From IMG/VR virus record IMGVR_UViG_2531839455_000003: a stretch of 38,174 bases of DNA, one strand, 5' to 3'. Under the pieces are notes generated by a model, which ran no database searches, was not told the origin of the DNA, and was given only the letters and a program-made list of their open reading frames with translations. Both the position numbers and the translations under genes were made by a program. This document shows positions 9,703 to 38,174 of this stretch, piece by piece (position 1 is the first letter of the stretch; each line of letters starts with the position of its first letter). The stretch is from a virus (Duplodnaviria; Heunggongvirae; Uroviricota; Caudoviricetes).

Positions 9703-9756
9703 TCTGAATCTCCCGTCCAAAAGCGCAAATCATGCCATGCAGGCCGGAAACGGCCA

Positions 9757-9782
9757 TTATCTAAAACCTCGGTTTACAGGAA
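9757..9782. other. gix/pix-like 26-bp inversion crossover site (right)
   Basis: TTATCTAAAACCTCGGTTTACAGGAA; one mismatch from the Mu gixL sequence as I recall it; lies beside the invertase 5' end. Confidence 0.8.
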
Positions 9783-10727: not shown

Positions 10728-10729
10728 CG

Positions 10730-11263
10730 ATGATGCACTTAAAAAACATTACTGCTGGCAACCCTAAAACAAAAGAGCAATACCAGCTAACAAAGCAATT
10801 TAACATCAAATGGCTTTATTCAGATGATGGAAAAAACTGGTATGAGGAACAAAAGAATTTCCAGCCAGACACTTTGAAAATGGTCTATGGCCATAACGGC
10901 GTTATTATTTGTATTGAAAAGGATGTTTCAGCAATTAATCCGGAAGGCGCAAGCGTCGTTGAATTACCTGATATTACAGCAAATCGCCGTGCTGACATTT
11001 CGGGTAAATGGATGTTCAAAGATGGCGTAGTGGTAAAGCGAACTTATACCGAGGAAGAGCAGAGGCAGCAGGCGGAAAATGAAAAGCAAAGCCTGCTACA
11101 GCTCGTCAGGGATAAAACCCAGCTATGGGACTCACAGCTACGGCTGGGCATCATTTCCGACGAGAATAAACAAAAATTAACAGAGTGGATGTTCTTTGCG
11201 CAGAAAGTCGAATCTACAGACACTTCCAGCCTGCCAGTAACGTTTCCCGAACAACCTGAATGA
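10730..11263 (+). CDS. tail-fibre assembly protein (alternative copy, Tfa/gpG-like)
   Basis: 177 aa; N-terminus MMHLKNITAGNPKTKEQYQLTK... parallels the other tfa copy; follows the alternative fibre segment. Confidence 0.85.
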   Translation: MMHLKNITAGNPKTKEQYQLTKQFNIKWLYSDDGKNWYEEQKNFQPDTLKMVYGHNGVIICIEKDVSAINPEGASVVELPDITANRRADISGKWMFKDGVVVKRTYTEEEQRQQAENEKQSLLQLVRDKTQLWDSQLRLGIISDENKQKLTEWMFFAQKVESTDTSSLPVTFPEQPE

Positions 11264-11266
11264 GAC

Positions 11267-11290
11267 AAGGCCCGATAGCGGGCCTTAATT
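11267..11290. terminator. bidirectional hairpin between the convergent tfa genes
   Basis: AAGGCCCG-ATAG-CGGGCCTT followed by AATTTTTATT. Confidence 0.5.
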
Positions 11291-11291
11291 T

Positions 11292-11819
11292 TTATTCAGG
11301 CTTTTGTGGCCATTCAGGATTTGCCGTATCCACACGGTTGACCAGAACACTGTAGCGTTCCCATGACTCCAGTCGTGCGCGTTCCTCATCCGTCGCCATA
11401 TTCAGCCTGACAGCGCGTTCCAGCGGCTGGATGACTGATTCAGCTTCGGAAAGCAATGCGGCCTTTTGTGATTCGGCCTGTTGTTGCTGTTCGTCAGCCG
11501 TATAAATCCGTTTAACCACAGCTCCGTCCTTAAACATCCACTTTCCTGAATCATCAGCGCGGCGGTTGGCTGTTATATCGGGAACCTCAACGACGCTAAA
11601 ACCTTCAGGGTTAAGCGTGGAGGCATCTTTAGTGATGGCGACAATAATATTATTTGCATCGTAAACAATCTTTATTGTGTCTGGCTGAAAGTTTTTCACT
11701 TCCTCATACCAGTTTTTTCCGTCCTCAGAGTAAAGCCAGATAACTCCGTGTTTCTTTGTTAACTCATACTGTTCCAGTGTTTTAGCGTTACCCGCTTTTA
11801 TGTTCTTTAAGTGCATCAT
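11292..11819 (-). CDS. G: tail-fibre assembly protein (currently expressed copy, gpG-like)
   Basis: 175 aa, [22 protein letters not shown]...; immediately downstream of H on the same strand. Confidence 0.88.
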
Positions 11820-11820
11820 A

Positions 11821-13983
11821 TTAAACGCTCGCTACATTATACCAGGTGCCATTTATATACTTTTGAACGGGTCTGTAATAAACGCCCGCTATATTATCGG
11901 CAGAGTTGGAGCCTGTATCCTGAACATTAATACCAGACAATACATGACCTGACGGGCACTGGAAATTCCATGTTTGCCAGTTGTTCACTCCATAATATTG
12001 CTGTGAACCAAGTCGAACATCTTTCACATATCTGGAATCAAAATTGCCATAATTGCCGGGAATAACTTGCGCACCGCAAAGCCAGTTCCCGTTATTATCC
12101 ATGTACGCCTGACCATCGGTACCATTGGCTGTCCTTGAGTTATTAATCATGTAGATGCCAAATTGCTTATTTCCCAGACCGCCAATCATAAATTTTCGGT
12201 CGGCATGGTCCTGACGGAGCAAGGCCTGGGCGCTATCAGTGTTAACTATATTTTTCCCAAAGATAGCGTTGTTATCGCGCATCTGAATCCACATACCATT
12301 ACCGCTGTTAATAGCAAAACGGTCTGAAAGTGTTTCTCCTGAAACATTAAGGCCACGCCCCATCGAAACAGCGCCAGTAGCGTTATTAATCCATAATGGC
12401 CTTAATCCGTTATAAGTCCCCATGTTGTCACCGGAGTTTGTCAACATGAAGTATGTATTTGAACCATCATTACGAATAAAGAATCCGTAATTACCATAAG
12501 CAATACGTAGGCCGTTTGCTGATTTTGATATGACTTCGCCATTTACAATGGCATTGACAAGAACATACAAAGCATCCCATTTAAGATTCATCAGGTCTTT
12601 TGTTGTGGTGCTTTGTTTGCTTCTCCATTTGAAATATTCATTGCCGTTGTCGCCTGTTTCAAACCACATGTATGAATCAGTGTCACCATCGGCATCATTT
12701 TTAAATCCAATCTTTGCCCAGTCAGTATTTCGAATCCAGGCAAGGATTGAGTCATTTTCAAAAGTAAGCCCACCGGACAAGGTATCGCCATTTTTTTGCA
12801 CGGCGTTACCAGCCCTGTTTACCGTTTCCTGTAAACCGAGGTATTCGATAACAGCGGCAACGGTCGATTTCGCAAGAATATCCCGCCCGACTTCTGTCAG
12901 GGTTGCCAGACTGGCAACATCATTCCCCGTAAAATACGGAAACCTGTCTGCTGCAGTAGCAAGCCCGGCCAGCGCCGTCAGGGTGGCATCTTTCGGTTGC
13001 TTACCCGCAAGCGCGTTAGTCATGGTGGTCGCAAAATTCGGGTCGTTGCCCAGCGCCGCCGCCAGCTCGTTCAGCGTGTTCAGTGCGTCAGGTGAAGAGT
13101 CTACAAGTGCGGCAATCGCGGCCATAACGAAAGCCGTGCTTGCGATTTGGGTATTATTCGTTCCCTGTTGTGCAGTTGGTGTTGTTGGCGTTCCGGTCAG
13201 TGCCGGGCTGTTTAATGGGGCTTTCTTGTTCGTTTCATCCATTACCGCCTTAACCGCTTTTGGTGTCGCTGCCAGCGTTTCAGACGTGCTGTTGGTTGCA
13301 CTGCTGAGCTGGACTATCCCTTTTCGTGCCGTCGTGGCGTCCTGAGCGGTATATTTTCCGTTAGCCAGGTCATACGCGGCCTTAACCGCTTTCGGCGTTG
13401 CAGCCAGCGTTTCAGAATCGCTGTTAGTGGCGCTACTGAGTTGAACAAAGCCTTTTGCGGTCAGCGAGGCATCCGGGTGACGTCGTGACTGTTCATGCTC
13501 TTTCAGTTTGTCATCCACGTAATCCACTGTGGCCATCACCATGGTGTTATCCACGGTAAGCGCCACGGTGGCAGTGCTGGATACGGTCAGAATGGTGCGA
13601 AATGTTTGTGCACGTCCTGACCCTTCGGCAACGGTTGGCTTGTAACTTTCGGCAGTATTGCCTACTGCGATTAAATCGCCGTGCTCATCAAACACACCAA
13701 TTTCCCGGATCCAGAATCCGCCCGTTTCTGGAGGAATAACCAGCTCCGCAATAATGCGGTTCTGATGTGTTGCGTCCAGGATGACGCGATTAACAGTGTG
13801 TCGCCACACCTCATGCACCAGACGGGTCTGCTTACTGTCTGGTGTGGGCAACGTGCCGCCACCGTCGCCCACGGCCATATGAGTCAGGCGGACAGGCTTA
13901 CCATCTGGCGCGGCTGCCTGAGCTAATTTTTTTGCACCCGTATCGGTGATAACGGTTTTAAATTTTCGTGTTGTGGTACTCAT
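11821..13983 (-). CDS. H: tail fibre protein gpH (constant N-terminus plus current variable C-terminus)
   Basis: 720 aa; N-terminus [31 protein letters not shown] is P2 H-like; contains the left gix-like site at 12826-12851 in frame. Confidence 0.92.
12826..12851. other. gix/pix-like 26-bp inversion crossover site (left), inside H
   Basis: TTCCTGTAAACCGAGGTATTCGATAA, inverted relative to the site at 9757-9782. Confidence 0.8.
13247..13446 (-). repeat. intragenic tandem direct repeat in H (two ~68-bp copies, 132-bp period)
   Basis: Copies at 13247-13314 and 13379-13446 encode the repeated peptide [22 protein letters not shown]. Confidence 0.7.
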
Positions 13984-22395: not shown

Positions 22396-24147
22396 ATGAT
22401 TCAGGACGCTTTTGTGCGCCAGCGTGCGCGGCAACTTTACTGGCAGGGTTATCCGCCCGCAGAAATATCACGTCTGATGGGAATAAACCCGAACACGATT
22501 TATGCGTGGAAAAAACGCGACCAGTGGGATGAAACGCCACCCGTGCAGCGTGTCACGCAGTCCATCGATGCGCGCCTCATCCAGCTCACTGAAAAACAGA
22601 ATAAAACAGGTGGTGACTTCAAGGAAATAGACCTGCTGACCCGGCAGCTTAAAAAACTGCATGATGGCCAGCCGGATGCGACGGCCACAGGAAAGAAAGG
22701 CCGGGCGAAAAAACTCAAAAATCATTTCACGCCGGAACAGATTGCCGCACTGCGGGAAAAAATCATCAGCAGGCTGGAGTGGCATCAGCGGGGCTGGTTT
22801 GACTCCCTGACCCTTTGCAGGGAAGCCGGGATACGTAACAGGATGATCCTGAAATCCCGACAGATTGGGGCGACCTGGTATTTTGCACAGGAAGCTCTGC
22901 TGATGGCGCTGCGTGACGATGTGGCGCAACCTTACCAGCGTAACCAGATTTTTTTGTCTGCGTCGCGTCGTCAGGCGTTCCAGTTTAAAAGCATTATTCA
23001 GAAGGCCGCGGCTGAAGTTGATGTGGAGCTGAAAGGGGGCGATAAAATCATCCTCTCCAACGGCGCAGAGCTGCATTTTCTCGGCACTTCTGCTGCGTCG
23101 GCACAGTCCTATACGGGCAATTTTTATTTTGATGAATTTTTCTGGGTCAGTCGCTTTGCTGAACTGCGCAAGGTGGCTGGCGCTATGGCAACCCTCAGCG
23201 GACTGCGGCGCACATACTTCTCCACGCCATCCACCGAAACGCACGAGGCATACGCCTACTGGAACGGCGACCGCTGGAACGAGAAAAAGGCCTCGCATAA
23301 ACGCCAGCGTTTTTCTGTGGACTGGAAAACGCTGCATAACGGGCTTATCTGCCCTGACCGGACGTGGCGGCAAATTGTCACGCTGGAAGATGTGGTTAAT
23401 CACGGCTGGAAACACACCGATATTGATGAAATTCGTGATGAAAACACCGAAGACGAGTTCCTCAATCTCTATATGTGTGAGTTTGTTCGCGAAGGGGAAT
23501 CGGCATTTAACCTGAATATCCTGATTGGCTGCGGTGTTGACGGATACGACGACTGGAAAGACTGGAAACCTTTTGCTCCCCGCCCGATGGGGAATCGTCC
23601 GGTATGGATTGGGTATGACGCAAACGGCAGCAGTGGCAACGGCGACAGCGGCGCGGTGTCCGTGGTGGTTCCTCCGGCTGTTCCTGGTGGCCGTTTTCGA
23701 ACGGTGGAGACGCGACGCGTTCAGGGGCTGGAGTTTGAAGAACAGGCCAGAGTCATTGAAGAGTTCACGTGTCGCTACAACGTGGAACACATCGGCATTG
23801 ATGTGACGGGCGGAAACGGGGAGGCTGTTTATCAGATAGTGAAGCGGTTTTTCCCTGCTGCTATTCCGTACACCTTCACGCTGTCATCCAAACGGTCGCT
23901 GGTACTGAAAATGCTGCAAATAATGCGTGCCGGACGGTGGGAATACGATCGCGCCGAACGCGAGCTGGTCGCGGCCTTTAACGCCGTGCGTAAGGTGAAA
24001 ACACCGGGCGGCTTTATCACTTACGAAACGGACCGCGCGAGGGGGATCAGCCACGGCGACCTTGCGTGGGCAACCATGCTTGCTGTCATTAACGAACCAA
24101 TTGGCGGCGAAGGAGAAAACGAGCGTTTCACGGTTATGGAGTTCTGA
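22396..24147 (+). CDS. P: terminase large (ATPase) subunit gpP
   Basis: 583 aa; N-terminal HTH-like region followed by the ATPase/nuclease body. Confidence 0.93.
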   Translation: MIQDAFVRQRARQLYWQGYPPAEISRLMGINPNTIYAWKKRDQWDETPPVQRVTQSIDARLIQLTEKQNKTGGDFKEIDLLTRQLKKLHDGQPDATATGKKGRAKKLKNHFTPEQIAALREKIISRLEWHQRGWFDSLTLCREAGIRNRMILKSRQIGATWYFAQEALLMALRDDVAQPYQRNQIFLSASRRQAFQFKSIIQKAAAEVDVELKGGDKIILSNGAELHFLGTSAASAQSYTGNFYFDEFFWVSRFAELRKVAGAMATLSGLRRTYFSTPSTETHEAYAYWNGDRWNEKKASHKRQRFSVDWKTLHNGLICPDRTWRQIVTLEDVVNHGWKHTDIDEIRDENTEDEFLNLYMCEFVREGESAFNLNILIGCGVDGYDDWKDWKPFAPRPMGNRPVWIGYDANGSSGNGDSGAVSVVVPPAVPGGRFRTVETRRVQGLEFEEQARVIEEFTCRYNVEHIGIDVTGGNGEAVYQIVKRFFPAAIPYTFTLSSKRSLVLKMLQIMRAGRWEYDRAERELVAAFNAVRKVKTPGGFITYETDRARGISHGDLAWATMLAVINEPIGGEGENERFTVMEF

Positions 24148-25193
24148 TGAGCAGAAAAAATAAAAAAGTGCGCATGAGTTCACGCATTGATCTCGCTGAT
24201 GCGCTCAGGAAAGAATCATCGCTCAGTGCATTCACATTTGATGGTCCTTATCGCCTGACCGGGCATGACCTGCTGGACAATATGTACTGTGCTGATAACG
24301 GGCGGTGGTATGAAACCCCGGTGGACTGGTACGGTCTGGCAAGAGCAGCCCGGCAAACGTCCTGGCATCAGTCTGCGCTTTACTTTAAGCGCAATGTATT
24401 ACTCGGTTGCTACATCCCGCACCCGCTGCTTTCCCGGCAGGATTTCTCGGCGCTGGCGCTGGACTGGTTTGTGTTCGGTAACGCATTCCTTGAGCTTCGA
24501 AGCAATATGCTCGGCGAACCGCTTAAATTACGGCACGCACTGGCGAAATACATGCGACGCGGAAGCGATCTTGAATCATGGTGGTATGTGCAGGATGGCA
24601 AGGACGCGTTCCAGTTTCGCCCTGGCAAAGTGTGCCACCTGATGAATCCGGACATTAACCAGGAAATTTACGGCATGCCGGAATATCTTGGCGCATTACT
24701 CTCGGCCAGCCTGTCTCATTCGGCGGACATGTTCAGAAAACTGTATTACGACAATGGATCCCACGCCGGGTGCATCATCTACATCGGTGCAGCGCAGGTG
24801 AACCGCGAAAGCATGGACTCCCTGAAAGAAACGTTACAGGGTGCGCGTGGTGGTGGTGCGTTTAAAAACGTGCTCATCCATGCGCCCAACGGGGGCAAAG
24901 AGGGGGTGCAAATTTTGCCGTTCCAGCAGATCACAGCAAAAGATGAGTTCATGAATGTTAAGGCGGCATCCCGTGATGATGTGCTGGCTGCGCACCGCGT
25001 TCCGCCGCAACTGATGGGGGCGATGCCGGGCGAAAAAAGTGCGTTTGGTGATGTGGAGAAGGCCGCGCGGGTTTACGCAATTAACGAGCTGATGCCCGTC
25101 ATGGAGGCCATGAAGCACATCAATGACTGGCTTGGCGAAGAGGTGATCCGCTTTAACCCTTACGCACTGTTAGACACCCAGCCCACATCCTGA
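24147..25193 (+). CDS. Q: portal (capsid portal vertex) protein gpQ
   Basis: 348 aa; overlapping stop/start with P (ATGA). Confidence 0.93.
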   Translation: MSRKNKKVRMSSRIDLADALRKESSLSAFTFDGPYRLTGHDLLDNMYCADNGRWYETPVDWYGLARAARQTSWHQSALYFKRNVLLGCYIPHPLLSRQDFSALALDWFVFGNAFLELRSNMLGEPLKLRHALAKYMRRGSDLESWWYVQDGKDAFQFRPGKVCHLMNPDINQEIYGMPEYLGALLSASLSHSADMFRKLYYDNGSHAGCIIYIGAAQVNRESMDSLKETLQGARGGGAFKNVLIHAPNGGKEGVQILPFQQITAKDEFMNVKAASRDDVLAAHRVPPQLMGAMPGEKSAFGDVEKAARVYAINELMPVMEAMKHINDWLGEEVIRFNPYALLDTQPTS

Positions 25194-25617: not shown

Positions 25618-25654
25618 TTGTGCAAATTTGTGCACTATTGTGCATTTGTATAGT
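25618..25654 (+). promoter_or_regulatory. three helically phased TTGTGCA direct repeats with a candidate -10 (TATAGT) upstream of the cargo operon
   Basis: TTGTGCA at 25618, 25628 and 25638 (exact 10-bp spacing); TATAGT at 25649-25654; about 70 nt upstream of ATG 25724. Confidence 0.4.
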
Positions 25655-25723
25655 GAAAAAAATATAGCAGAAAGTATACTTAGCGCCTTGTGGGCTACGT
25701 TAACTTTGCAGGAACATTTGGAA

Positions 25724-27103
25724 ATGAAAAAAATCAATAAAGAAGATTCTAAAAGAACCTTTTTACGTGGATGGTTGCGATTTCTTCGTAGCGTTGAGAG
25801 AGCTAAGAAAAAAAAGCCTGCGCAAGAGAAAAATGGTAGTCTTCGTTTTTCCGATGAAACAACTCCTGTCCAAAACCAAGTCGCTACGTTCATTGAAAAT
25901 ATATCGATTATAAAAGAGTATGACTCATCAATTCTTCGTCGTGACGCAGAGAAGATATTAATACCTAAATATTTTGACTTATATGACAATCCAGAGAAAT
26001 CTCTGCTATTTATTAGTGCAGCCACAAAATTAATTGCAAGAGGTAAATGGAAATCATATATTTTTGATTACAAGAAAAACAAAAAACACTGTCTTGGTCT
26101 TGAGTGTCTATTAGGTGTTGCTCTTACAGCAGCAAGGCAAAGTAATATAAATTTCAAAGATACGATGATTCAGATTAATGGTATCTACCCTAAAGATGAA
26201 CAGTATCTTGAAATTATCAGGGATGTCGGGCTTGTAAAAGAGATTAGTAATGCTGCACCAGGTAAAGTTCTGGACTCTACTGAAGCATCGAAAAAAGCGA
26301 ATCCGAAGAAACGAATCTTCTCTGCTGATAGTATCGGAAAGGAGAATGCTTCTGCCTTTGCCCATGACAGAAAAAATGTCACTGCTGAAAAATTTACCGC
26401 ATACATAAACGAATGCTTAAATGATCATAATTTAAAACTTGTACATGAGGCAGAAAAGCATTTAACTTCCTGCATGGGGGAACTCCTTGATAATGCGGAG
26501 CGGCATTGTGGGTTAGAGCAACGCCCACGCTGGTATTTGAGAGGTTTTGTTAATAATAACGTACGAAACCCCATATGTGAGTTGGCTGTTTTCAATTTTG
26601 GGAAAACTATCAGCGAAACTTTTGATAATTTACCTGAGGATCATTTTTCATTAAGTCAACAAGTTAATCCATACATAAATAAGCATATTAAGAAAAAGGG
26701 TATGTTTAAGGAAGGATTAACAACAGTAGCGGCCTTGCAAGGGCGGGTGAGTTGTAAAAACGAGAAAGAAACTGACAGTTCTGGCACCGGAACAATTGAA
26801 TTATTGAAGTTATTTCAAGATATGCATGATAATCTTAAAAAAATGGGAAGAGATATTAAAGGTGGGATAAAAATGACTTTAATATCTGGTAGTACTCATA
26901 TTAACTTTGATGGATCATATAAATTAAAGCAAAGGTTGGTTAATGACGAGGAAAGTGACATTTTTACTTACCCTTTTAATGATGTAGGGCTTGAATCTGA
27001 ACCGGATCGCAACTATCTTAAGCGTATGAAGGATGCTCGATTTCCTGGAGTTATGATCAATATTCGTTTTCCTCTACCAGAAAACGCCACCCAGCGAACT
27101 TGA
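25724..27103 (+). CDS. cargo gene 1: predicted GHKL/Bergerat-fold ATPase-like protein (possible Ser/His-kinase-type), function unknown
   Basis: 459 aa from the first ATG; AT-rich. N-box-like motif GELLDNAERH (E-x3-N-A-x2-H), then a degenerate G1-like FNFGKT and a G2-like SSGTGTIELL glycine loop in the C-terminal half. Confidence 0.7.
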   Translation: MKKINKEDSKRTFLRGWLRFLRSVERAKKKKPAQEKNGSLRFSDETTPVQNQVATFIENISIIKEYDSSILRRDAEKILIPKYFDLYDNPEKSLLFISAATKLIARGKWKSYIFDYKKNKKHCLGLECLLGVALTAARQSNINFKDTMIQINGIYPKDEQYLEIIRDVGLVKEISNAAPGKVLDSTEASKKANPKKRIFSADSIGKENASAFAHDRKNVTAEKFTAYINECLNDHNLKLVHEAEKHLTSCMGELLDNAERHCGLEQRPRWYLRGFVNNNVRNPICELAVFNFGKTISETFDNLPEDHFSLSQQVNPYINKHIKKKGMFKEGLTTVAALQGRVSCKNEKETDSSGTGTIELLKLFQDMHDNLKKMGRDIKGGIKMTLISGSTHINFDGSYKLKQRLVNDEESDIFTYPFNDVGLESEPDRNYLKRMKDARFPGVMINIRFPLPENATQRT

Positions 27104-27113
27104 GGACAGGTAC

Positions 27114-27458
27114 ATGAAAATGGCTGACATCACCATAGATTTCAATAAGTTAGTAAAAGATAGTAACAAGAAACTTTTTGCTGGACGTTCTAATGGGCGC
27201 CAGGCCTATGATTACTTTAATATAGGGAAATTTTGCACAACCAGTAATGATAGATTATATCTATTGATCCCCAAGGGAATTGTTGTATCAAGCTCATACT
27301 TTCTAGGTATGCTTGAAACGGTTTTGCCGAAATTTTCTTCGCCTAGCGAATTTTATAGTCGCACTGTACTTGATGGTCGTGAATATAAAGAAGGTATGCT
27401 TTCTGAATTAGATAGAGCTGTAAGGAGAGGCTTACATAAAAATGTTCCCTTCTTTTAA
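27114..27458 (+). CDS. cargo gene 2: small cytoplasmic protein, possible STAS-like (anti-sigma-antagonist fold) partner
   Basis: 114 aa, 10 nt after the gene 1 stop (SD GGACAGG). Motif LYLLIPKGIVVSSSYFLGMLETV resembles the beta-strand plus DSSG serine loop of SpoIIAA/RsbV-type STAS domains; assigned by motif only. Confidence 0.6.
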   Translation: MKMADITIDFNKLVKDSNKKLFAGRSNGRQAYDYFNIGKFCTTSNDRLYLLIPKGIVVSSSYFLGMLETVLPKFSSPSEFYSRTVLDGREYKEGMLSELDRAVRRGLHKNVPFF

Positions 27459-28251
27459 AAATATTTTTCAAATCAAAATGACAGCGCTGTCTGTCATTTT
27501 TTTTATATTCCCCGCAGCTTGCTCTGTGACAGATTTTTCCAATAAAGAAAACATTGAATGTAATGAGTCACTTTATCCAAACACGCCTTTTTATATTTCC
27601 GATTCAGGACTTAGTGGTATATCATCACCGTTTTTGTTATCCGGAAACCCGAATGATGGCTTGATGTTTTGTGAAAAGGCAAACGACACCTTTCATAAGT
27701 TATCTCTGGCAAGGGATAACAAAAAAGATTTATTTGCTAATTATTTCAAAGATGTTCCAAATTCCTATGATATATATAATATTGTAAAGGTTCCGGAAAA
27801 TGGTCCAGAGTGGATTTCTATTGGCATCTCTTTATTTGCTTTAGTTTCATCCTTTGTTATTCCTTGTGTTCAACATAGAAAAGAACGTAAAGAAGCTATT
27901 AATGAAGGGTATTGGGTAAGAGAAGTAATTATGCCTAAAATTAATGGGTTGGCATTCGATGTTGTGCAAAGTTTTAAAAACTCCATGGCATTATCAGAAG
28001 AGGAGTTTCTTAGTGTATTCAGTAATACTCTTTTACCAAAACTAGGAGAGTTACGGGATTCATTATATTTGTTTAATAGTTTTCCAGAATTAAATGCAGA
28101 TATTGAAAATCTAGAAAGTATTTGTGACTCCTTGGAGGAAGAAGTTTCCAATCATATAGACTCGCCTAATGAAATAAGAATTTCTGATATATCAATGTTT
28201 CATTCCAAATTAATACAGAAATTAATTTTACTTCATAAGAAGATAGGTTGA
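27442..28251 (+). CDS. cargo gene 3: membrane protein (N-terminal signal/anchor plus internal TM helix), candidate effector
   Basis: 269 aa. Start overlaps the gene 2 end by 17 nt; SD AAGGAGAGG upstream. N-terminal hydrophobic segment MTALSVIFFIFPAAC, internal TM EWISIGISLFALVSSFVIPCV, acidic C-terminal domain. Confidence 0.65.
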   Translation: MFPSFKNIFQIKMTALSVIFFIFPAACSVTDFSNKENIECNESLYPNTPFYISDSGLSGISSPFLLSGNPNDGLMFCEKANDTFHKLSLARDNKKDLFANYFKDVPNSYDIYNIVKVPENGPEWISIGISLFALVSSFVIPCVQHRKERKEAINEGYWVREVIMPKINGLAFDVVQSFKNSMALSEEEFLSVFSNTLLPKLGELRDSLYLFNSFPELNADIENLESICDSLEEEVSNHIDSPNEIRISDISMFHSKLIQKLILLHKKIG

Positions 28252-28296
28252 TTTTCAAGGCCTCCTTATTCCTAGGGCGGCCTTAGCTCTATATTT

Positions 28297-31044
28297 CTAT
28301 CGTGTTCGATGCAATAAACTGATTTTTTTGCGAGCATGTTTAGTGGTTTCACTGATTCTCTGTGCGTGCTCTGCGTCGCGGATGGCGCGCAGCATGTCAG
28401 AAAGTACGGTAACGGGTGTTTTCATGGTGTTCTGGTCTTGCTGAAGTGTGGATGCCAGGCGTGCGGCGGCTTCAGGGTCTGATGCCTCTAGTTGTTCCAG
28501 ATAGCTGGCGACCGGGTTATGGCGGATCTCCGTGCTGCTTACGCCGTGATTACGACTCAGGCGTTGCCAGAGCTGCGTGATTCGGCTGTCCGGGCGGGTA
28601 TCCTGTTTGCGTACAATTTCAAATCCCTGCGGTGCAATGATGCTGCCGCCAACGTACAGACTGCCGCCCCGTAACAGGTGCTGCATCTGCTGTTCACCGA
28701 TATGCAGGCCGAGAGATTCAGCAGACTCCCGCCATTCTTTAGCGAGTAACTCGTGGTTATCAGGCAAAGGCTGTGGCTGTTTGCGGCTCTGTGTCCAGTT
28801 CTGCATTTCATCACTGCTGTTTTTTGCCTGTTTGTCACGCAGCGAACGCATCAGTGCCCGGCGTTCGTGCCGTTTCAGTGAGCGCATCCATTCATTCACG
28901 TCAACGCCTTCAGGAAGCCGCGGCCACGGTGCTGGCCGTTCTTCCGGCTGTTCTGTCCCGTTGTTGTCCGTTTCCTGTACACGGGGACAGTTATTGCCAC
29001 GAGTCCAAGGGGCGGCAGGGCCGCCCTGAAGGTCAAAACCATTTTCGCGGGCGCTGTCTTCCGTTTCCGGTTTACGTCTTACCAGTTTCCAGTTATCCGG
29101 ATGCGTGCACACACGGGAGGATTCCCCGATGAGTGGTGACCAGATCCCGTAAATCTGTACGCTCTGTTCGCCGTAATCATTCAGCTCATCTGCGAGGTCG
29201 TAGGCGGTGCGAATCAGGTAGTCTTTGCGTGGAACAAGTACGCCGCCCTGTTTTTCAATGTAGGTGGCAAAACACCCGGCATCGGCGGCAGCGAGTACCG
29301 CATCCATTGCGTCATCTTTCAGTCGTTGCGGGCCTTCCGGGTTGCGTGCCATCTGGCTGGCAAGGCGGCGCAGTTCACGCCACACCTGACGGGAGGGGAT
29401 GCCAAAGAACTGGAACTGGCGGACCCGATGAAGGCGCGCCCAGCCGATGGCGCGCTCCACACTCTCGGCCATTGATTTTCCGGTTTCGTGGTCAACGCGT
29501 GGCTTGCCCGTTTTCGGGTCGATGCCATCCACGGCGCGGCTGTCCAGGTTCTTTCCGATGTAGGTCGCGATATAGCTGGTTGGTGTGCCTTTTGAGCCGT
29601 CGACATACTCCGCCTTAAAGCGCGGAGTAATATCATTGCCCAGCTCGTGGCGGTCTTCCTGAATGGCAATATCGCGGGTGATGGCCACGATGCTGTCGAT
29701 TTCTTCCGGATGAGCAAAGACCATCATATGCCAGTGCACGGTGCCGTCATGGTGAGGCTCCACCGTGCGGATGCCATACCAGCGAAGACCGTCGCGGTTC
29801 AGTTTTTTGCGGACCGCCGCAAAAAACGTGTTAACCAGGTAATCGCTGGAGTCGCGCATGGTGGCCCCGTTCCATTTGGGATTCGGATGACCGTTCTCTG
29901 TTGTGGCGTGGTATTTTGACGGGCAGGTGACAGTCAGAAACACCGCTTTGTCGCCACGGGCTTCGGCCAGAAGTTCCAGCCCCTTCATGGTGGCCATCAT
30001 TTCTGCCTTACGGTGAACCGGGTTACTTACTCCCGCGTAATACACCGTCTCGAGATCAATCGTGAACCCGTCTTCGTTTTCCAGCATGAAACTTTTCAGG
30101 AAATCGCGTGTTTTCTCGCGCTGTGCGCGAAACTCGCTTAACGCGTCCTGGCTCAAATAGGGCGATGTTTTTCTGGAAACCAGACAGGCGGCGCGGAGTT
30201 GTTCTTCTCTCCACTCGCAACGTAACAGCCACAGTTTGCGTTTCCACCATTCCGCACAGGTCAGGCGAAGGATTGCGCCCGGCAGCAGCTCCGTGTCCGG
30301 TTCGTTCCTCCGGTCTTTATCTGTTGTCAGTGCGTCATAATGTGGAGGCATGATGTGCAGGTGTAACGCCATGCGGGCCAGCATCTGATACGCCTTCAGC
30401 GTTACATCCATGGTCAGTTCGCCATCGGTCGCGCCAAAGCCATCGCAGAGTTTTTCGAAGGTGCTGCTGAACATCGCCGCCGTCATGGTGGCCAGCGTCT
30501 GTATCTGGTGTTTGTTGAGCTGCGGCAGGTAAAGCAAATCGTCCAGGCGTTCGCGTCCGGCAAGGGAGCGATAACCCGGTGTCAGCCAGTGTCCGTCAGT
30601 GCGATCCAGACGTTCGAATATTTTGCGCAGGGTTCCGCGTGCATAGCGTTCCGCCTGCCAGCTCTTTTTGCCTTTCCGGCGATCGGCTTCCTGTTTTTTG
30701 CGCAGGAAGGAGAGGTGGCGAATAAGCGGATCGCGCAGATAGGACGGCAGCAGGCGCAGCGAGGCCATGGCTTCATCCACCGCGCCGCGTGCCTGTTTTC
30801 TGGCGTCTCCTGCCAGTGCGATGGTTTTGTCCTGTTTTTCCTGTGCGTCCAGGCTTTTATTAATCAGGTTGCCCAGCGGCGTGGCGGAGAACGCCGCATC
30901 AGCCATTTTCTGGCGGCGCTCGTTCTCTGCCCGGTAGGCATCCAGCCAGGAGGAAAGCACGGATTCAGGAGCGGGGATCCCCGTTCCTTCACGCCCTACT
31001 GCGTGGCGCGGTTGTTGCCAGTCCCTGATGTACTCTGTCGTCAT
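28297..31044 (-). CDS. A: replication initiation endonuclease gpA (rolling-circle, HUH-type)
   Basis: 915 aa with HHDGTVHWHMMVF (HUH-like) and a downstream Tyr-containing region; longer than P2 A, so an extension or different start is possible. Confidence 0.88.
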   Translation of the reverse strand: MTTEYIRDWQQPRHAVGREGTGIPAPESVLSSWLDAYRAENERRQKMADAAFSATPLGNLINKSLDAQEKQDKTIALAGDARKQARGAVDEAMASLRLLPSYLRDPLIRHLSFLRKKQEADRRKGKKSWQAERYARGTLRKIFERLDRTDGHWLTPGYRSLAGRERLDDLLYLPQLNKHQIQTLATMTAAMFSSTFEKLCDGFGATDGELTMDVTLKAYQMLARMALHLHIMPPHYDALTTDKDRRNEPDTELLPGAILRLTCAEWWKRKLWLLRCEWREEQLRAACLVSRKTSPYLSQDALSEFRAQREKTRDFLKSFMLENEDGFTIDLETVYYAGVSNPVHRKAEMMATMKGLELLAEARGDKAVFLTVTCPSKYHATTENGHPNPKWNGATMRDSSDYLVNTFFAAVRKKLNRDGLRWYGIRTVEPHHDGTVHWHMMVFAHPEEIDSIVAITRDIAIQEDRHELGNDITPRFKAEYVDGSKGTPTSYIATYIGKNLDSRAVDGIDPKTGKPRVDHETGKSMAESVERAIGWARLHRVRQFQFFGIPSRQVWRELRRLASQMARNPEGPQRLKDDAMDAVLAAADAGCFATYIEKQGGVLVPRKDYLIRTAYDLADELNDYGEQSVQIYGIWSPLIGESSRVCTHPDNWKLVRRKPETEDSARENGFDLQGGPAAPWTRGNNCPRVQETDNNGTEQPEERPAPWPRLPEGVDVNEWMRSLKRHERRALMRSLRDKQAKNSSDEMQNWTQSRKQPQPLPDNHELLAKEWRESAESLGLHIGEQQMQHLLRGGSLYVGGSIIAPQGFEIVRKQDTRPDSRITQLWQRLSRNHGVSSTEIRHNPVASYLEQLEASDPEAAARLASTLQQDQNTMKTPVTVLSDMLRAIRDAEHAQRISETTKHARKKISLLHRTR

Positions 31045-32090: not shown

Positions 32091-32921
32091 TTACTTCACC
32101 GGAACAAACGGAACAGCGGTGTTGCTGGTCATGTATTGCGGCAGCGTGCCGTTCCATTTGTTGATTGCTTCCAGCTCCATAACGCCGGGATTCTGGCGCA
32201 GAGCTTCACCGCGTAAACGAATGGCGTCGGCTTCAGCCTGGGCTTTTGTGCGAATGGCATCAGCCTGTCCGGCAGCTTCTGCGCGCAACATGTTGGCTTC
32301 TGCTTCGCGTTGCTTGACTTCCTGTTCGCGTTGCAGGGTTTTCTGGTTTGCCGTGACTTTGGCATTAATGCTGTCGATAACGGTTGACGGGTACTCCGGC
32401 TTACCCACATATGAGAGGCTCATTACCTGAATACCGATAGGTGTCATTTCCTCCTGAATGTCTTTAAGAGCTGCATCCAGTAGTTCAGATTTCCCGCCGT
32501 CGATAAATTTGTCGGTGGTCATTTTGCTGGCCAGTCGGTTGAGTGCATCGGCGATCTTCTGGCGCAGGTCAGTGTCGGTAATGTCATCCACGCCTTTGCG
32601 GTAGGTCTGAAACACTGTAGTAACTTTGGATGGATCAACCTTGTAGGCCACACCGATGTGATAGCCGATGGTTGTGCCGTCACTCATCTGGAAGCTGAAC
32701 GGCTCATCGTAGGTCTTCATTTGTTTGAAGGTCGGGAAGATGTAAACCTCGGTATTCCAGCCAGTCCAGTAGCGGCCAACGCCAACCACTTCGCCGACGC
32801 CTTTGTCGTCGCCCAGTTTGTTGACTTTGATGCCCACATTACCTGGCTCAACGCGATCGCAACCAACCAGCAGGATGGCGGCAAAAAGCGGGATAATCTG
32901 AAAGAGTTTGAATTTCTTCAT
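32091..32921 (-). CDS. SPFH/band-7 (stomatin/prohibitin-like) lipoprotein
   Basis: 276 aa; lipoprotein signal MKKFKLFQIIPLFAAILLVGC; band-7-like core; C-terminal Ala/Glu/Gln-rich coiled-coil (REAEANMLRAEAAGQADAIRTKAQAEADAIRLRGEA). Confidence 0.82.
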   Translation of the reverse strand: MKKFKLFQIIPLFAAILLVGCDRVEPGNVGIKVNKLGDDKGVGEVVGVGRYWTGWNTEVYIFPTFKQMKTYDEPFSFQMSDGTTIGYHIGVAYKVDPSKVTTVFQTYRKGVDDITDTDLRQKIADALNRLASKMTTDKFIDGGKSELLDAALKDIQEEMTPIGIQVMSLSYVGKPEYPSTVIDSINAKVTANQKTLQREQEVKQREAEANMLRAEAAGQADAIRTKAQAEADAIRLRGEALRQNPGVMELEAINKWNGTLPQYMTSNTAVPFVPVK

Positions 32922-33897: not shown

Positions 33898-34308
33898 CTA
33901 TGCGTTAAATACGGCACGTTGCGTGCCATCAATGAATGCGGCCTGAGTGCGTTCTATCAGGCGGAGATTTGTCAGAACTTCTGACTCTCTTACGGGGTAA
34001 GGGGTAATCAGGTATTTGTCCTGCAATTCGGCGATAATGATGTATTGCTGTAGCTCCGAGCCAATAATATGAATAAGGTGTCCAATGTCAGATAAATTCA
34101 GTCTGGTGGTTGGTTGTGTTTTGAGAACCGTTAGTTCAGCATCCTGTTTTTCGATGATTTCGGCTGCTTCGGCGGTTACTCTTGTTATCATCATGGCCGT
34201 GGTGGCAGGCCCAATCATTCCTGCATTTGTTGCATCCTGAATGGCTCTGTTTGCGGTCTCCGATATATTTTTTAGCGCAGTTACAATGCCTTTTTCTTTT
34301 GCGTTCAT
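33898..34308 (-). CDS. hypothetical early protein
   Basis: 136-aa ORF in the co-directional early gene string. Confidence 0.55.
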   Translation of the reverse strand: MNAKEKGIVTALKNISETANRAIQDATNAGMIGPATTAMMITRVTAEAAEIIEKQDAELTVLKTQPTTRLNLSDIGHLIHIIGSELQQYIIIAELQDKYLITPYPVRESEVLTNLRLIERTQAAFIDGTQRAVFNA

Positions 34309-34401
34309 TTTTGTATCTCCATTATTTACGTGTGTGAATGCCTCCGTTAATTCGGATGGTTTTCACGTTTTCTTATTTAATCTGGTGTTTTATTTGTGCT
34401 G

Positions 34402-34515
34402 TTATTCGTCAGAGAAAAAACGCTCAATCTTTTTCACTGAATGAATAATTCGCATAATGCCAATAGCGCAGATCACCGAAATAATCAGAACAAGCCACGA
34501 GATAAATATACTCAT
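34402..34515 (-). CDS. small hydrophobic peptide (37 aa, single TM), not in the ORF track
   Basis: ATG overlaps the stop of the upstream gene (ATGA); translates to MSIFISWLVLIISVICAIGIMRIIHSVKKIERFFSDE. Confidence 0.4.
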   Translation of the reverse strand: MSIFISWLVLIISVICAIGIMRIIHSVKKIERFFSDE

Positions 34516-34754
34516 GCGATATTCCCCAGCTTATACGGTTCAATATGTTCCCCGCATTCTGCGGCACAGATCAGCTCGGAAAGTTCGTTAAGTGCATCCA
34601 GATCATCAGCGTAAAAAGCCACGTCATACAGACTCCGGATTGCCCTGGTCAATGAGTCACGGGCTGCACGTTCAGCATGAGCGCCTGATGCACTTAAGCG
34701 AAAATAAAAACGCTCAAGTGCTTTGTTAATGAGAGTTTTATATTCTTTGCCCAT
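34512..34754 (-). CDS. hypothetical early protein
   Basis: 80-aa ORF. Confidence 0.55.
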   Translation of the reverse strand: MGKEYKTLINKALERFYFRLSASGAHAERAARDSLTRAIRSLYDVAFYADDLDALNELSELICAAECGEHIEPYKLGNIA

Positions 34755-34774
34755 TGTATTTTCCCGGAAAACAA

Positions 34775-35029
34775 TTAAACAAAATCTCTTAATGGTTTAC
34801 CTGATTCAATGCGCTCAATTGCATCGTTAATGGCCATGTATGCGGCGTGATCACCTGCATAGCGTGCGCATTCCTGTAGTGACTTTAATCCGCTGATAGT
34901 ATCGCTTTTTGCTTCCGATAAAGGTTTCACCGTATTTAATGCATCACGGGCATTATTATCTATGAGTCGGTGTATGATAAGAGTGTAGGCCGAGGCTATC
35001 TCTACCATGTTTTTTGTCGTTGTTGCCAT
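34775..35029 (-). CDS. hypothetical early protein
   Basis: 84-aa ORF. Confidence 0.55.
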   Translation of the reverse strand: MATTTKNMVEIASAYTLIIHRLIDNNARDALNTVKPLSEAKSDTISGLKSLQECARYAGDHAAYMAINDAIERIESGKPLRDFV

Positions 35030-35032
35030 TGG

Positions 35033-35383
35033 TTAATTCCCCCGTGGATGCTGAAAACTACGTCCTGCAATTAAGCGGTCAACCGTGCGTAGCGCTTCGT
35101 ACAATGTAAAATCCTGTCCGAACTGATTGTCGCCGCAGCTCAATGCAAAAATGCGGTTTCCGGTAAACGGATTGCGTGGGCATTTGTGGACCACAATTCC
35201 AGCTTTCTCAATCAGCCAGGTATGCTCGCCGATTTGTTTTACTGGGTAGCCATCCGGCGTTGCGTGTGTTTCGCTCAGGCTGTAGCGAGAGTTGCTACGT
35301 GATGCACTGGTAGCGAAACGGTTAGCATGGCGTTCCGCACCGTTGCGGAAGCGCTGCTGTGAATAATTGCGCTGTAGTTTCAT
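35033..35383 (-). CDS. hypothetical early protein
   Basis: 116-aa ORF; first gene of the co-directional string running down to A. Confidence 0.55.
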   Translation of the reverse strand: MKLQRNYSQQRFRNGAERHANRFATSASRSNSRYSLSETHATPDGYPVKQIGEHTWLIEKAGIVVHKCPRNPFTGNRIFALSCGDNQFGQDFTLYEALRTVDRLIAGRSFQHPRGN

Positions 35384-35519
35384 ATTAAAACTCTGTACCT
35401 TCGGTAAGGTGTACTCGTGTCACCTTGTATTGATTTGTGGTATTTTTTTGTGTGTCTAGGACTTGGACTGGCCGGTTCAGGTCCTGGCTTATGTTTAATT
35501 AAATTGTTAAGGGGTTTTC

Positions 35520-35711
35520 ATGTCAGAAGATAAAAAAGTTGTTAATTTGTTGAGTGAACTTAGTGCTGCTCTGGATAACATTAACCCTCCCAGGGTAAAA
35601 ACGACGGGTGATAAAGACGCATTAAACGCAGAGATTCATATATTACTGGCGTTAGTAACTGACAAAATTCAGCGTAAATACCCACCTGTCACACAACTGG
35701 TTGATTTTTAA
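35520..35711 (+). CDS. small AT-rich ORF (63 aa), unknown function
   Basis: Strong SD AAGGGG 5 nt upstream of the ATG; convergent with the 140-aa gene. Confidence 0.5.
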   Translation: MSEDKKVVNLLSELSAALDNINPPRVKTTGDKDALNAEIHILLALVTDKIQRKYPPVTQLVDF

Positions 35712-35717
35712 TTTGAT

Positions 35718-36140
35718 TTATGCCGGGCTGCTCCCGGCATCTTCTAGCTGCCATAATGTCTCGTCACCTGATAGAGCAAAACGAAATGAGTGAAGTATAT
35801 CCTCCCGAGAGAAGCTCACGGCTACAGCTGCGGGAAAGTCAAATATAATCCCACCTTCATTTTTAAAACGATTACGCAATTGATAGGCTATCGGTTTGAT
35901 TTGTGCAGGAAGAGTATCTATATCTCTTCCATTGACAACAGAATCTTTGTTTTCAAGTACTGATTTAGCGATTAGATATAGATGCCAGTAACTGGTTACA
36001 ATTGTTACTCCTGTGATGTGTCGTAAATTAATTGCAATTCGTCCGTTATTATGTTTTTCCGCAAGGTATTTCAGGTTATCAATTAATGGTTGGTCATTTT
36101 TTGAAATAGTTATTGTGAAATCTGGCGTGTTTGTTTTCAT
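35718..36140 (-). CDS. AT-rich hypothetical protein (140 aa from ATG 36140)
   Basis: Start trimmed from the long track ORF (35718..36383) to ATG 36140 to remove the overlap with the upstream gene; AT-rich composition differs from the neighbours. Confidence 0.5.
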   Translation of the reverse strand: MKTNTPDFTITISKNDQPLIDNLKYLAEKHNNGRIAINLRHITGVTIVTSYWHLYLIAKSVLENKDSVVNGRDIDTLPAQIKPIAYQLRNRFKNEGGIIFDFPAAVAVSFSREDILHSFRFALSGDETLWQLEDAGSSPA

Positions 36141-36144
36141 ACGA

Positions 36145-36666
36145 TTAGTTGCCTCTGTTGTTTCTGAGTTGGTCCAGTTTTGAGCTTCTGCCTGTATAAA
36201 CTCGCTTACCGTTAATGGTCTGGCAGTCTTCTTTATTAGCTGGAGAGAACTTCCTTTTCTGGCGGTCATACGTCCAGTAACTTTTCCAGTTGTGCCATTC
36301 TGGGGGCTCGTGCTCTGGTAGCTCATCAGCCAACTTGTCCCACTCTTTGGCGTTAAACCACCATACTCCGTCTGAGTTTTCATCTTCCGGGTTTGTGCGC
36401 GTCTTGTGTCCCGGCATTTGACCGCGATGAATGGCTACGCGCAGTGCAGATTTTGTTAGCCCAATATATGCCGCGCCTTTTTCCAGAGAGCAAAGCCCGG
36501 CGATCGGACCATCCAGCCGTAAAGTCGCTCCTTTTTTGTAGGAACGCTTTTTCTTGTTTTCTTCGTGTTCGTCGTCGTTGGCGGCATCAATGGATCCGCT
36601 GAGTGCGTCACTTTCCTGAAGTGGTTGGTGGTCAGATAACTCTTTATCGGCAATGAAGTCCCGCAT
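36145..36666 (-). CDS. first early-operon protein, possible HTH DNA-binding (Cox/excisionase-like role unproven)
   Basis: 173 aa; ATG 36666 with SD AGAGGA; divergent from the repressor gene; contains LTKSALRVAIHRGQMPGHK. Confidence 0.55.
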   Translation of the reverse strand: MRDFIADKELSDHQPLQESDALSGSIDAANDDEHEENKKKRSYKKGATLRLDGPIAGLCSLEKGAAYIGLTKSALRVAIHRGQMPGHKTRTNPEDENSDGVWWFNAKEWDKLADELPEHEPPEWHNWKSYWTYDRQKRKFSPANKEDCQTINGKRVYTGRSSKLDQLRNNRGN

Positions 36667-37181: not shown

Positions 37182-38174
37182 ATGTCGATTAAGCAACTCA
37201 AAGACGGACGTTATCAGGTCGATGTCAGACCGCAGGGGGCGGAAGGAAAGCGGATTCGAAAAATCTTTGCCCTGAAATCAAAGGCTCAGGAGTTTGAGAA
37301 GTATGTGTTACAGAACTTTCATGACAAGCCATGGCAGGCTAAGCCAGCTGATCAGCGGCGATTATCAGAGCTGCTTGATGCGTGGTGGATGCTTGATGGG
37401 CGTAATCAGGCTTACGGGGATAGCTACAGGGTTAGGCTAGGGAAGGTTGTTCGTGAAATGGGAGATCCTCGCGCCAGTCAGATGACGCGAAAATTTATGC
37501 TTGAATATCGGTCAGAGAAATTACAGGCCGGATTAATGCCGTCCAGTATTAATCGTGACTTATGCGTACTGTCTACCATGTTCACGGTGCTGATTGAAGC
37601 TGAGGTCTTTCACAACGCGAACCCTGTACGCGGTATACGAAAACTGAAAGTTCAGAACACAGAGATGGCCTTTCTTTCTGATGATGAGATTGAACGGCTT
37701 CTTGAACGACTGGAGGGTGATGCGCGTCGTGTTGCCATTCTGTGTCTTTCTACTGGTGCCCGATGGAGTGAAGCATCGGAACTACGTGGAGAGCATATCG
37801 TTGGCAACCGGGTGACGTTCTTTAACACCAAAAACGGAAAATCCCGTTCGGTTCCTGTGGCGGATTCGGTCGTGCCTCTGATTAAAACCCGTCGAACGGG
37901 GTTATTGTATCAGGTTGATTATCTGAAGTTCCGGGAGATTCTTCAGGAGGTGAAACCGGATTTGCCGAAGGGGCAGGCTACGCATGTCATGCGTCATACA
38001 TTTGCCACACACTTTATGATGAATGGCGGAAATATTGTTACGTTGCAACGAATCCTGGGGCACGCAACGATTCAGCAAACAATGACGTACGCTCATTTTT
38101 CGCCGGACTTTTTACAGGACGCGATCAACTTTAATCCGCTGGCTGAAAGTGTCCATAAACTGTCCATCGATTAG
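37182..38174 (+). CDS. int: tyrosine recombinase / phage integrase
   Basis: C-terminal catalytic region HVMRHTFATHFMMNGGNIVTLQRILGHATIQQTMTYAHF; ATG 37182 with SD GGAGGGG (6-nt spacer); stop TAG at the last three bases of the window. Confidence 0.93.
   Translation: MSIKQLKDGRYQVDVRPQGAEGKRIRKIFALKSKAQEFEKYVLQNFHDKPWQAKPADQRRLSELLDAWWMLDGRNQAYGDSYRVRLGKVVREMGDPRASQMTRKFMLEYRSEKLQAGLMPSSINRDLCVLSTMFTVLIEAEVFHNANPVRGIRKLKVQNTEMAFLSDDEIERLLERLEGDARRVAILCLSTGARWSEASELRGEHIVGNRVTFFNTKNGKSRSVPVADSVVPLIKTRRTGLLYQVDYLKFREILQEVKPDLPKGQATHVMRHTFATHFMMNGGNIVTLQRILGHATIQQTMTYAHFSPDFLQDAINFNPLAESVHKLSID

Follow-up and report, generated by a model that had tools for sequence, protein, structure and literature searches.

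We analysed a 38,174-nt stretch of Caudoviricetes DNA (IMG/VR virus record IMGVR_UViG_2531839455_000003; the whole stretch is called the window below). In it a compact operon of three genes, referred to here as the cassette, lies between the portal gene Q (24147–25193, plus strand) and the replication gene A (28297–31044, minus strand). All three genes are read from the plus strand: gene 1 (25724–27103) codes for 459 amino acids (aa), gene 2 (27114–27458) for 114 aa and gene 3 (27442–28251) for 269 aa. Genes 1 and 2 are separated by a gap of 10 nt, genes 2 and 3 overlap by 17 nt, and gene 3 converges with gene A, which encodes a gpA-type replication endonuclease of 915 aa. On the left side, gene Q follows the large terminase gene (22396–24147, plus strand). 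Coordinates and flanks agree exactly with an earlier reading of the bare sequence (hereafter, the original prediction), in which these genes had been put forward as a candidate undescribed anti-phage system made of a GHKL-like ATPase, a small STAS-like protein and a membrane protein. In RefSeq, all three genes of E. coli WS1933D and EC21Z-147 bear the label "hypothetical protein", and the start of gene 2 varies between 27114 (114 aa) and 27120, two codons downstream (112 aa).

The cassette is AT-rich cargo inserted in the backbone of a P2-like prophage of E. coli; the window matches strain WS1933D. DNA similarity to P88-type phages (Xuanwuvirus, Peduoviridae) ends at about position 25645, and the whole cargo block extends from there to the stop codon of gene A (25646–28296). 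Its GC content is 35.0%, against 53.6% in the left flank and 57.0% in the right one; at third codon positions of genes 1–3 it falls to 26–30%. Phage P88 carries other cargo at the same position, a ParM-type module. Since the P88-type similarity stops at this point and P88 itself holds different cargo, the Q–A site is a variable cargo hotspot, in line with the earlier suggestion of a horizontally acquired block at the position where P2 carries tin and old. No similarity to Old or Tin was found with Pfam, NCBIfam and PADLOC, as had also been anticipated for Old. The identical block is present in 23 of 5,426 complete E. coli genomes.

A conserved gene triad carried by mobile elements

Relatives of gene 1 form 59 clusters that range from 92% down to 33% identity and occur in Enterobacterales, Aeromonas and Vibrio; relatives of genes 2 and 3 form 41 and 21 clusters, respectively. 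The order of the three genes is intact at 56% identity in genuine P2-like prophages from other members of the Enterobacteriaceae and at 34% identity in Vibrio parahaemolyticus. Because the families are conserved across genera and the gene order is retained, the three open reading frames are real genes and not chance ones.

Scanning a genome collection with the gene 1 alignment gave 24 loci, which reach into Alphaproteobacteria, one betaproteobacterium and one Bacteroidetes metagenome-assembled genome (MAG). In the majority, a gene for a kinase-like protein of about 430–530 aa is followed by genes for about 103–129 aa and then about 167–270 aa. In local searches with hidden Markov models (HMMs), the large proteins of the distant loci are related to gene 1 at E < 1e-17. 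In a first pass, their small proteins matched gene 2 at E values between 1e-11 and about 3e-2, except for a single one (L022) at only E = 1.2; after one iteration all of them reached E < 1e-9.

The genomic settings of the triad are diverse. It occupies the same Q–A hotspot in P2-like prophages of other Enterobacteriaceae and of Klebsiella. In Vibrio it adjoins genes for a type I restriction subunit and AAA_15/21 ATPases, and in an Aeromonas prophage it stands beside a methyltransferase, an SRA-HNH protein, NERD and HipA. The neighbours of distant loci are a P2-type terminase, phage tail genes, a DUF927/Toprim primase, a coupling protein of type IV secretion systems (T4SS) or an integrase. A distant relative in a Sphingomonas MAG (L027) adjoins a P2-type, gpP-like terminase, and a close one in Proteus faecis (L009) adjoins tail genes with Phage_Tail_Tip and Phage-tail_3 domains; given these differing contexts, the cassette moves between unrelated prophage types. 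With tblastn, gene 1 had no counterpart in any of 50,697 phage records. Altogether, the triad is a real, conserved three-gene system borne by mobile elements, present in Proteobacteria and Bacteroidetes.

One locus stands apart. A contig of 3,147 bp assigned to a 'Planococcaceae bacterium' MAG of the Firmicutes (L008, DEQA01000158.1) carries a gene 1 whose protein is 100% identical to that of the window, followed by the same genes 2 and 3. Most probably this is an enterobacterial contig that was binned wrongly rather than a genuine Gram-positive occurrence.

Gene 1 combines a STAS-like and a GHKL domain

The predicted structure identifies gene 1 as a STAS-like domain fused to a GHKL (Bergerat-fold) kinase-like domain of the SpoIIAB/RsbW type, preceded by a basic N-terminal helix. 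The first 45 residues (25724–25858) contain 15 lysines or arginines, with a helix predicted at residues 6–29 and no helix-turn-helix (HTH). The internal STAS-like β-α-β-α domain spans residues ~70–205 (25931–26338), its borders being estimated from the secondary structure of the model and the length of the STAS alignment. In the fold comparison it resembles RsbV (score 8.8), TM1442 (8.3) and SpoIIAA (6.9), with 88–100 residues aligned. The STAS β-α fold is thereby recovered in a part of the protein where the original prediction had missed it. The Bergerat α/β fold was likewise recovered, in agreement with the GHKL-like ATPase proposed earlier.

The GHKL domain spans residues ~215–455 (26366–27088). 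Its N-box, E253-x3-N257-x3-H261 (26480–26506), reads E253-L-L-D-N257-A-E-R-H261 and is nearly letter-identical in alphaproteobacterial relatives. It is followed by an atypical G1 box, N291-F-G293-K-T (26594–26608), with asparagine where aspartate is canonical, and by the G2 box G354-T-G356-T (26783–26794). Residues E253, N257, H261, G354 and G356 do not vary among 45 sequences and are kept in the alphaproteobacterial and Bacteroidetes relatives.

The gene 1 protein of the window has no match above the curated cutoff of Pfam HATPase_c or HATPase_c_2; among the 45 relatives, three match HATPase_c_2 (best E = 0.007) and two HATPase_c (best E = 0.041). Across the HMM libraries Pfam, NCBIfam, PADLOC and PHROGs, the sole signal of gene 1 is phrog_3364 (E = 2e-7), to which PHROGs assigns no function. 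The family profile gave no matches among PDB sequences.

Gene 2 is a small protein with an invariant serine loop

Gene 2 encodes a small α/β protein, a candidate switch or antitoxin. Its AlphaFold2 model has a pLDDT (predicted local distance difference test) of 89.8 and shows a small β-α-β-α domain with a helix starting exactly at the serine triplet (residue 60). The loop S59-S60-S61-Y62 (27288–27299) at the start of helix α2 is invariant, with S59, S60 and S61 conserved in all 37 gene 2 sequences; across the extended family only G24, G28, S61 and G65 remain invariant. The family is also marked by an invariant L-F-A-G-R-x-N-G motif and a conserved C-terminal tail, GLHKN-x-PFF. Helix α2 of gene 2 thus starts with a conserved Ser/Thr, a candidate phospho-acceptor; from the comparison of CapS with SpoIIAA, STAS proteins bear their phospho-serine at the start of this helix (Chambers et al., PMC13373217).

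Gene 2 is probably DUF4325-like (STAS-like). Two distant orthologues approach the DUF4325 profile, with 20.3 bits and E = 4.4e-4 (L025) and 16.8 bits and E = 5.6e-3 (L017), both below the cutoff. Among PDB sequences, the gene 2 family profile matched the STAS protein TM1081 best (E = 0.93).

Gene 3 is a single-pass membrane protein

Gene 3, the candidate effector, carries clear membrane topology signals, which bears out the membrane protein announced in the original prediction. Hydropathy analysis gives two hydrophobic segments, at residues 11–29 and 125–143. The first belongs to a signal- or lipobox-like N-terminus (residues 1–27) and ends in A-A-C27-S, C27 being nearly invariant. The second is the transmembrane (TM) helix, which follows a conserved VPESGPEW motif (helix at 27814–27870). 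Between them lies a fast-evolving segment, probably periplasmic (residues 28–110). The helix is followed by QHRKERKE, so that, by the positive-inside rule, the C-terminal 126 residues should be cytoplasmic; this conserved domain (residues 144–269, 27871–28248) opens with S/A-I-N-E-G-Y-W-x-R-E-V-I-M-P. Mean identity amounts to 24% in the periplasmic segment, 63% in the VPESGPEW-TM region and 65% in the C-terminal domain.

The family is rare: an exhaustive HMMER search of 1.84 billion proteins yielded only 34 representative clusters. Some of its members are short forms of 166–192 aa, in which the N-terminal part is missing and the TM helix, the C-terminal domain and a juxtamembrane motif (S-I-x-D-x-[FY]-W-x-R-E-V-I-x-P) are preserved. 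Gene 3 has no Pfam or PADLOC domain, PIN included, and its sole match in PADLOC is PDC-S02 with 12 bits and E = 0.031. The third genes of alphaproteobacterial loci are of similar size and some of them have an N-terminal hydrophobic segment; homology of the gamma- and alpha-type third genes could not be demonstrated (hhalign E = 0.08), nor did the short homologues from the deep search bridge the two types.

Putative regulatory sites of the operon

A promoter-like site, GTGAAA-16 nt-TATACT (25653–25680, plus strand), lies about 45 nt upstream of gene 1, just within the cargo block, and is a candidate promoter of the operon by its match to the consensus; promoter-like sites number 8 against 9.7 expected from shuffled sequences, hence no enrichment. 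Directly upstream of it, at the end of the conserved P88-type backbone (25618–25644), the heptamer TTGTGCA is repeated three times with an exact period of 10 nt (25618, 25628 and 25638). This could be a protein-binding array, either packaging- or cos-related or an operator.

Just 17 nt past the stop codon of gene 2, and still inside the first 60 nt of gene 3, we found a perfect 10-bp hairpin (AAAATGACAG-N6-CTGTCATTTT) followed by a run of T (27475–27508, plus strand). Although the encoded amino acids differ, hairpin and T-run are kept at the same place in three loci (L009, L010 and L004), which belong to Proteus (L009), Yersinia and another enterobacterium. The Proteus copy has G-C in place of one A-T pair, a compensatory change, and G·T in place of another pair. 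They were not found in more distant loci. The hairpin is a candidate attenuator that would make the effector less strongly expressed than genes 1 and 2. Combined with the 17-nt overlap, it would be consistent with gene 3 being expressed tightly and to a more limited extent than gene 2, as in antitoxin-toxin pairs. Finally, the 45-nt spacer between the convergent gene 3 and gene A contains a short GC-containing hairpin, a candidate terminator (28272–28291).

The cassette in earlier catalogues

Two published catalogues had already flagged the cassette, so that the term 'undescribed' has to be withdrawn. Rousset et al. 2022 (PMC9122126) surveyed 18,150 Q–A loci of P2 phages, and their Table S5B lists the operon as P2-hotspot system #19, "HATPase_c | DUF4325" (an HHpred label), with 155 occurrences and the remark '1 TM in protein 3'. 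Proteins 1 and 2 of that entry match ours over the printed stretches, and protein 3 differs at two residues. RefSeq accessions of the cassette also appear in Table S5A, and it is absent from the tables of tested systems, including Table S2 (PMC9122126): the entry is a catalogue listing alone, with no test, name or mechanism. The same survey notes that P2 hotspots also hold partition systems and toxins unrelated to defence. DefensePredictor (Science 2026) calls gene 2 (WP_000763711.1) a "predicted novel defense gene", with a mean log-odds of 7.46 for a strict cutoff of 4; among the cloned units of that study we found no sign of it.

In the searchable literature we found no test, name or explanation of the cassette, and a search for DUF4325, STAS or HATPase combined with anti-phage returned one relevant paper, that on CapK and VapKSC. 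None of the three proteins has a significant match in Pfam, NCBIfam or PADLOC; against the PADLOC 2.0 models, genes 1 and 2 give nothing at E ≤ 1, and distant relatives likewise give no real match. The earlier statement that no nameable defence system corresponds to the cassette therefore holds for PADLOC 2.0, Pfam and NCBIfam; VapKSC, published in 2026, is a characterised system with plausibly the same logic.

Other features of the window

The canonical P2/P4 cos 19-mer (GGCGAGGCGGGGAAAGCAC) is found nowhere in the window, even with three mismatches allowed; owing to this absence, the P88-type phage described here uses another cos sequence. The gpA-type endonuclease, with its 915 aa, exceeds the 735–754 aa of P2-type loci (L004 and L005) and the 867 aa of Klebsiella loci (L033–L035); the replication protein of this lineage has an extension of about 160–180 aa.

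The early-gene region, from 32091–32921 (minus strand) to about 33900, encodes an SPFH (band-7) protein, an Ea22-like protein and a small regulator of the MarR family, which are further accessory cargo. At about 9116–13982, a DNA invertase gene, frameshifted in WS1933D according to RefSeq, stands beside tail-fibre and tail-fibre-assembly genes of opposite orientation. This is a host-range switching cassette, which may be inactive. Part of the tail-fibre region (10.5–13 kb) is likewise AT-rich (41–46% GC). A second AT-rich stretch (34000–36500, 39–45% GC) comprises the cox/repressor-side genes and several small hypothetical genes, and the integrase gene lies just past it (37182–38174).

A partner-switching module as a possible mechanism

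Kinases that unite STAS and GHKL domains have recently been placed in bacterial immunity. Chambers et al. (EMBO J 2026, PMC13373217) report that CapK (HTH-STAS-GHKL), activated by single-stranded DNA (ssDNA), phosphorylates the repressor CapS (STAS with a winged helix). The same work describes VapKSC, composed of the kinase VapK (STAS-GHKL, 302 aa), the 116-aa STAS antitoxin VapS, whose phospho-site is S48 and whose C-terminal tail is needed, and a PIN toxin, VapC; this three-gene operon protects against phage Bas42 by about 2 logs (PMC13373217). Partners that are membrane proteins are not mentioned there.

By analogy, we propose, as the best-supported reading, that the cassette is a prophage-borne, three-component partner-switching module that most likely acts in abortive infection or phage exclusion. 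Gene 1 would serve as both sensor and switch. At rest, gene 2, whose gene is translationally coupled to gene 3 through the 17-nt overlap, would bind the conserved, probably cytoplasmic C-terminal domain of gene 3, a single-pass protein of the inner membrane, and keep it inactive. An infection cue would activate gene 1, which would then phosphorylate gene 2, or sequester it, through the invariant serine loop S59–S61. The freed gene 3 would damage or depolarise the membrane, or else block the incoming phage DNA. As the operon encodes no phosphatase, the switch would be one-way. We infer the binding of the partners, the phosphorylation, the trigger, the toxicity of the effector and the anti-phage phenotype from VapKSC and SpoIIAB-SpoIIAA, and give the mechanism in this precise form slightly less than an even chance. 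An anti-phage role of some kind is probable: the original prediction of such a function remains plausible in view of the gene content, the defence-island and mobile-element contexts in other genera and the DefensePredictor score of gene 2.

Gene 1 shows one clear anomaly. Its G1 box departs from DxGxG, reading N291-F-G-K-T in gamma members and mostly S-x-G-x-S in distant relatives; the aspartate that contacts adenine is thus missing across the whole family, replaced by Asn or Ser. In other GHKL proteins, such as mutants of Hsp90 and GyrB, an Asp-to-Asn change at this position abolishes ATP binding, for which reason kinase activity of gene 1 should not be assumed. Neither gene 2 nor any of 38 close relatives matches Pfam PF14213 (DUF4325, cutoff 23 bits), and the predicted fold of gene 2 matches STAS structures weakly. 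The STAS-like character attributed to gene 2 in the original prediction is weakly supported; in its favour are the sub-cutoff DUF4325 signals, the HHpred label of Rousset et al. and the alignment of the serine loop with that of VapS.

The altered G1 box leads directly to an alternative, in which the switch is the same and gene 1 is a pseudo-kinase, non-catalytic or not using ATP. It would bind and release gene 2 in an anti-sigma-like manner, without phosphotransfer, in response to a nucleotide or another ligand, for instance a falling ATP/ADP ratio, GTP or a nucleotide made by the phage. The family-wide change of the G1 aspartate alongside an invariant N-box and G2 box suggests that ligand binding is kept in an altered form; proteins of the SpoIIAB/RsbW type switch partners according to the ADP/ATP state, and an operon that lacks a phosphatase gene would suit such a device. 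However, the invariant E253 (the general base) and N257 (the Mg2+ ligand), taken with the serine loop of gene 2, most simply point to phosphotransfer, and the characterised relatives CapK and VapK do act as kinases. We consider the pseudo-kinase unlikely. We hold similarly low expectations of gene 3 as an agent of superinfection exclusion, an envelope lipoprotein or membrane protein that would block DNA injection while genes 1 and 2 tune it and the host survives. Its lipobox-like signal and its fast-evolving, probably periplasmic segment are what one would expect of a surface in contact with phages, and the prophage location also agrees. Yet the short forms of gene 3 dispense with the periplasmic part and preserve the TM helix and the C-terminal core, so that the conserved function lies inside the cell; moreover, a kinase and a switch protein would be odd baggage for a passive blocker, and the precedent of VapKSC is one of toxin release.

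It is also improbable, though conceivable, that the cassette has nothing to do with phages and is an addiction module of the toxin-antitoxin type, a stress-signalling module or a lysogenic-conversion module. The variety of its carriers (P2-like and other prophages, elements with a T4SS coupling protein, an integrase or a primase), the presence of non-defence partition systems and toxins in the P2 hotspots surveyed by Rousset et al. and the antitoxin-then-toxin order with overlapping genes could all be read in this way. Against it stand the restriction and other defence genes that neighbour the triad in non-phage contexts, the high DefensePredictor score and the protection against phage conferred by its closest characterised relative; besides, many modules of the toxin-antitoxin type are themselves abortive-infection systems, such that the two readings overlap. 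Far less credible is a transcriptional pair of the CapK/CapS type, in which genes 1 and 2 would turn on gene 3 after DNA damage. Gene 1 does share the STAS and GHKL architecture of CapK, but it has no N-terminal HTH and gene 2, with its 114 aa, has no winged-helix domain, and the absence of these DNA-binding domains speaks against such a role; furthermore, gene 3 overlaps gene 2 with no promoter or operator between them, and CapK/CapS precede multi-gene immune operons. More speculatively, and with considerable doubt, the cassette might be more than VapKSC with another toxin and represent a separate, ancient partner-switch immunity lineage borne by mobile elements. Its GHKL domain, devoid of the canonical aspartate, would read another nucleotide or be a ligand-gated pseudo-kinase. 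A very rare single-pass envelope protein, whose periplasmic domain diversifies rapidly, would be its output or its input. The cytoplasmic switch would in this way be coupled to an event at the envelope, such as DNA injection or phage adsorption, in contrast to the cytoplasmic ssDNA sensing proposed for VapKSC.

Should the cassette indeed protect against phage, a membrane effector would join transcription (CapK/CapS) and a nuclease toxin (VapKSC) as the third output of the kinase-plus-STAS switch, and the case for the sensor pair as a reusable module of bacterial immunity would become stronger. A function would also be given to one of the commoner cargoes in the P2 hotspot of E. coli that still lack an explanation, counted at 155 per 18,150 loci by Rousset et al. 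and at 23 per 5,426 complete genomes here. The loss of the G1 aspartate throughout the family poses a biochemical question of its own: which nucleotide, if any, is used by the GHKL domain of gene 1. With its small size (2.6 kb) and a candidate native promoter, the system is easily testable.

Comparison with known systems

The P2 hotspot also holds Rst_3HP ('hp + hp + hp'; Rousset et al. 2022), an anti-P1 system that likewise consists of three hypothetical proteins, of 333, 359 and 227 aa. We rejected their identity: blastp against Hp1–Hp3 of pFR109 gave a best E value of 2.6, and the family HMMs found nothing.

Among classical partner switches, SpoIIAB-SpoIIAA and RsbW-RsbV control a sigma factor and involve a PP2C phosphatase, whereas the cassette has neither, fuses the kinase to a STAS domain and has a membrane protein as its output. 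CapK-CapS resembles the cassette in that a STAS and GHKL kinase is paired with a STAS-type partner carrying a conserved serine, and that the pair is associated with immune loci and restriction-modification systems. It differs by the N-terminal HTH of CapK and the winged-helix repressor CapS, features without equivalent in the cassette, and by its position upstream of multi-gene systems (CBASS, Bub, Thoeris), while a single gene, overlapping gene 2, follows in our case.

The similarity to VapKSC is one of architecture: a STAS and GHKL kinase, a small protein of about 115 aa and an effector follow each other in the same order within one operon. VapS, a strong DUF4325 member (E = 2.7e-17), has like gene 2 a conserved serine at the start of helix α2 and a C-terminal tail, which in VapS is functionally needed. 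Both systems lack a phosphatase and both are found near other defence genes. VapK and gene 1 share the N-box pattern E-x3-N-x3-H, and hhalign pairs N-box with N-box and G1 with G1, N291 falling opposite D190 of VapK; it also aligns the serine loop of gene 2 to the phospho-site of VapS, S60 opposite S48. The register of the motifs is correct in these alignments, although the similarity is not statistically significant (E = 0.15 for VapK; 0.14, then 0.043 for VapS). The local HMMs of the cassette families reached neither VapK nor VapS, and a broadened gene 2 profile failed to reach VapS as well. In the reverse direction, the VapK/VapS relatives that we found (one metagenome locus and two weak plasmid matches) are too few for family profiles.

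Gene 1 is 157 residues longer than VapK, with its basic N-terminal extension, and its G1 box reads NxGxT instead of DxGxG. The aromatic residue that contacts ssDNA, F54 in VapK and W68 in CapK, has no clear counterpart: the stretch H-C-L-G-x-E127-C-L-L-G of gene 1 holds no conserved aromatic in gamma members, and the column of E127 is occupied by Tyr in most distant relatives and by Phe in two, in a region where the alignment to VapK is unreliable. As effector, the PIN nuclease VapC of VapKSC is replaced by a single-pass membrane protein. In the strict sense, the cassette thus falls outside VapKSC: a PIN toxin is absent, and sequence similarity to both VapK and VapS stays below significance. 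The cassette nonetheless shares its architecture and plausibly its logic, and is better described as a membrane-effector variant of that logic than as unprecedented. Altogether, the cassette looks like a membrane-effector cousin of VapKSC.

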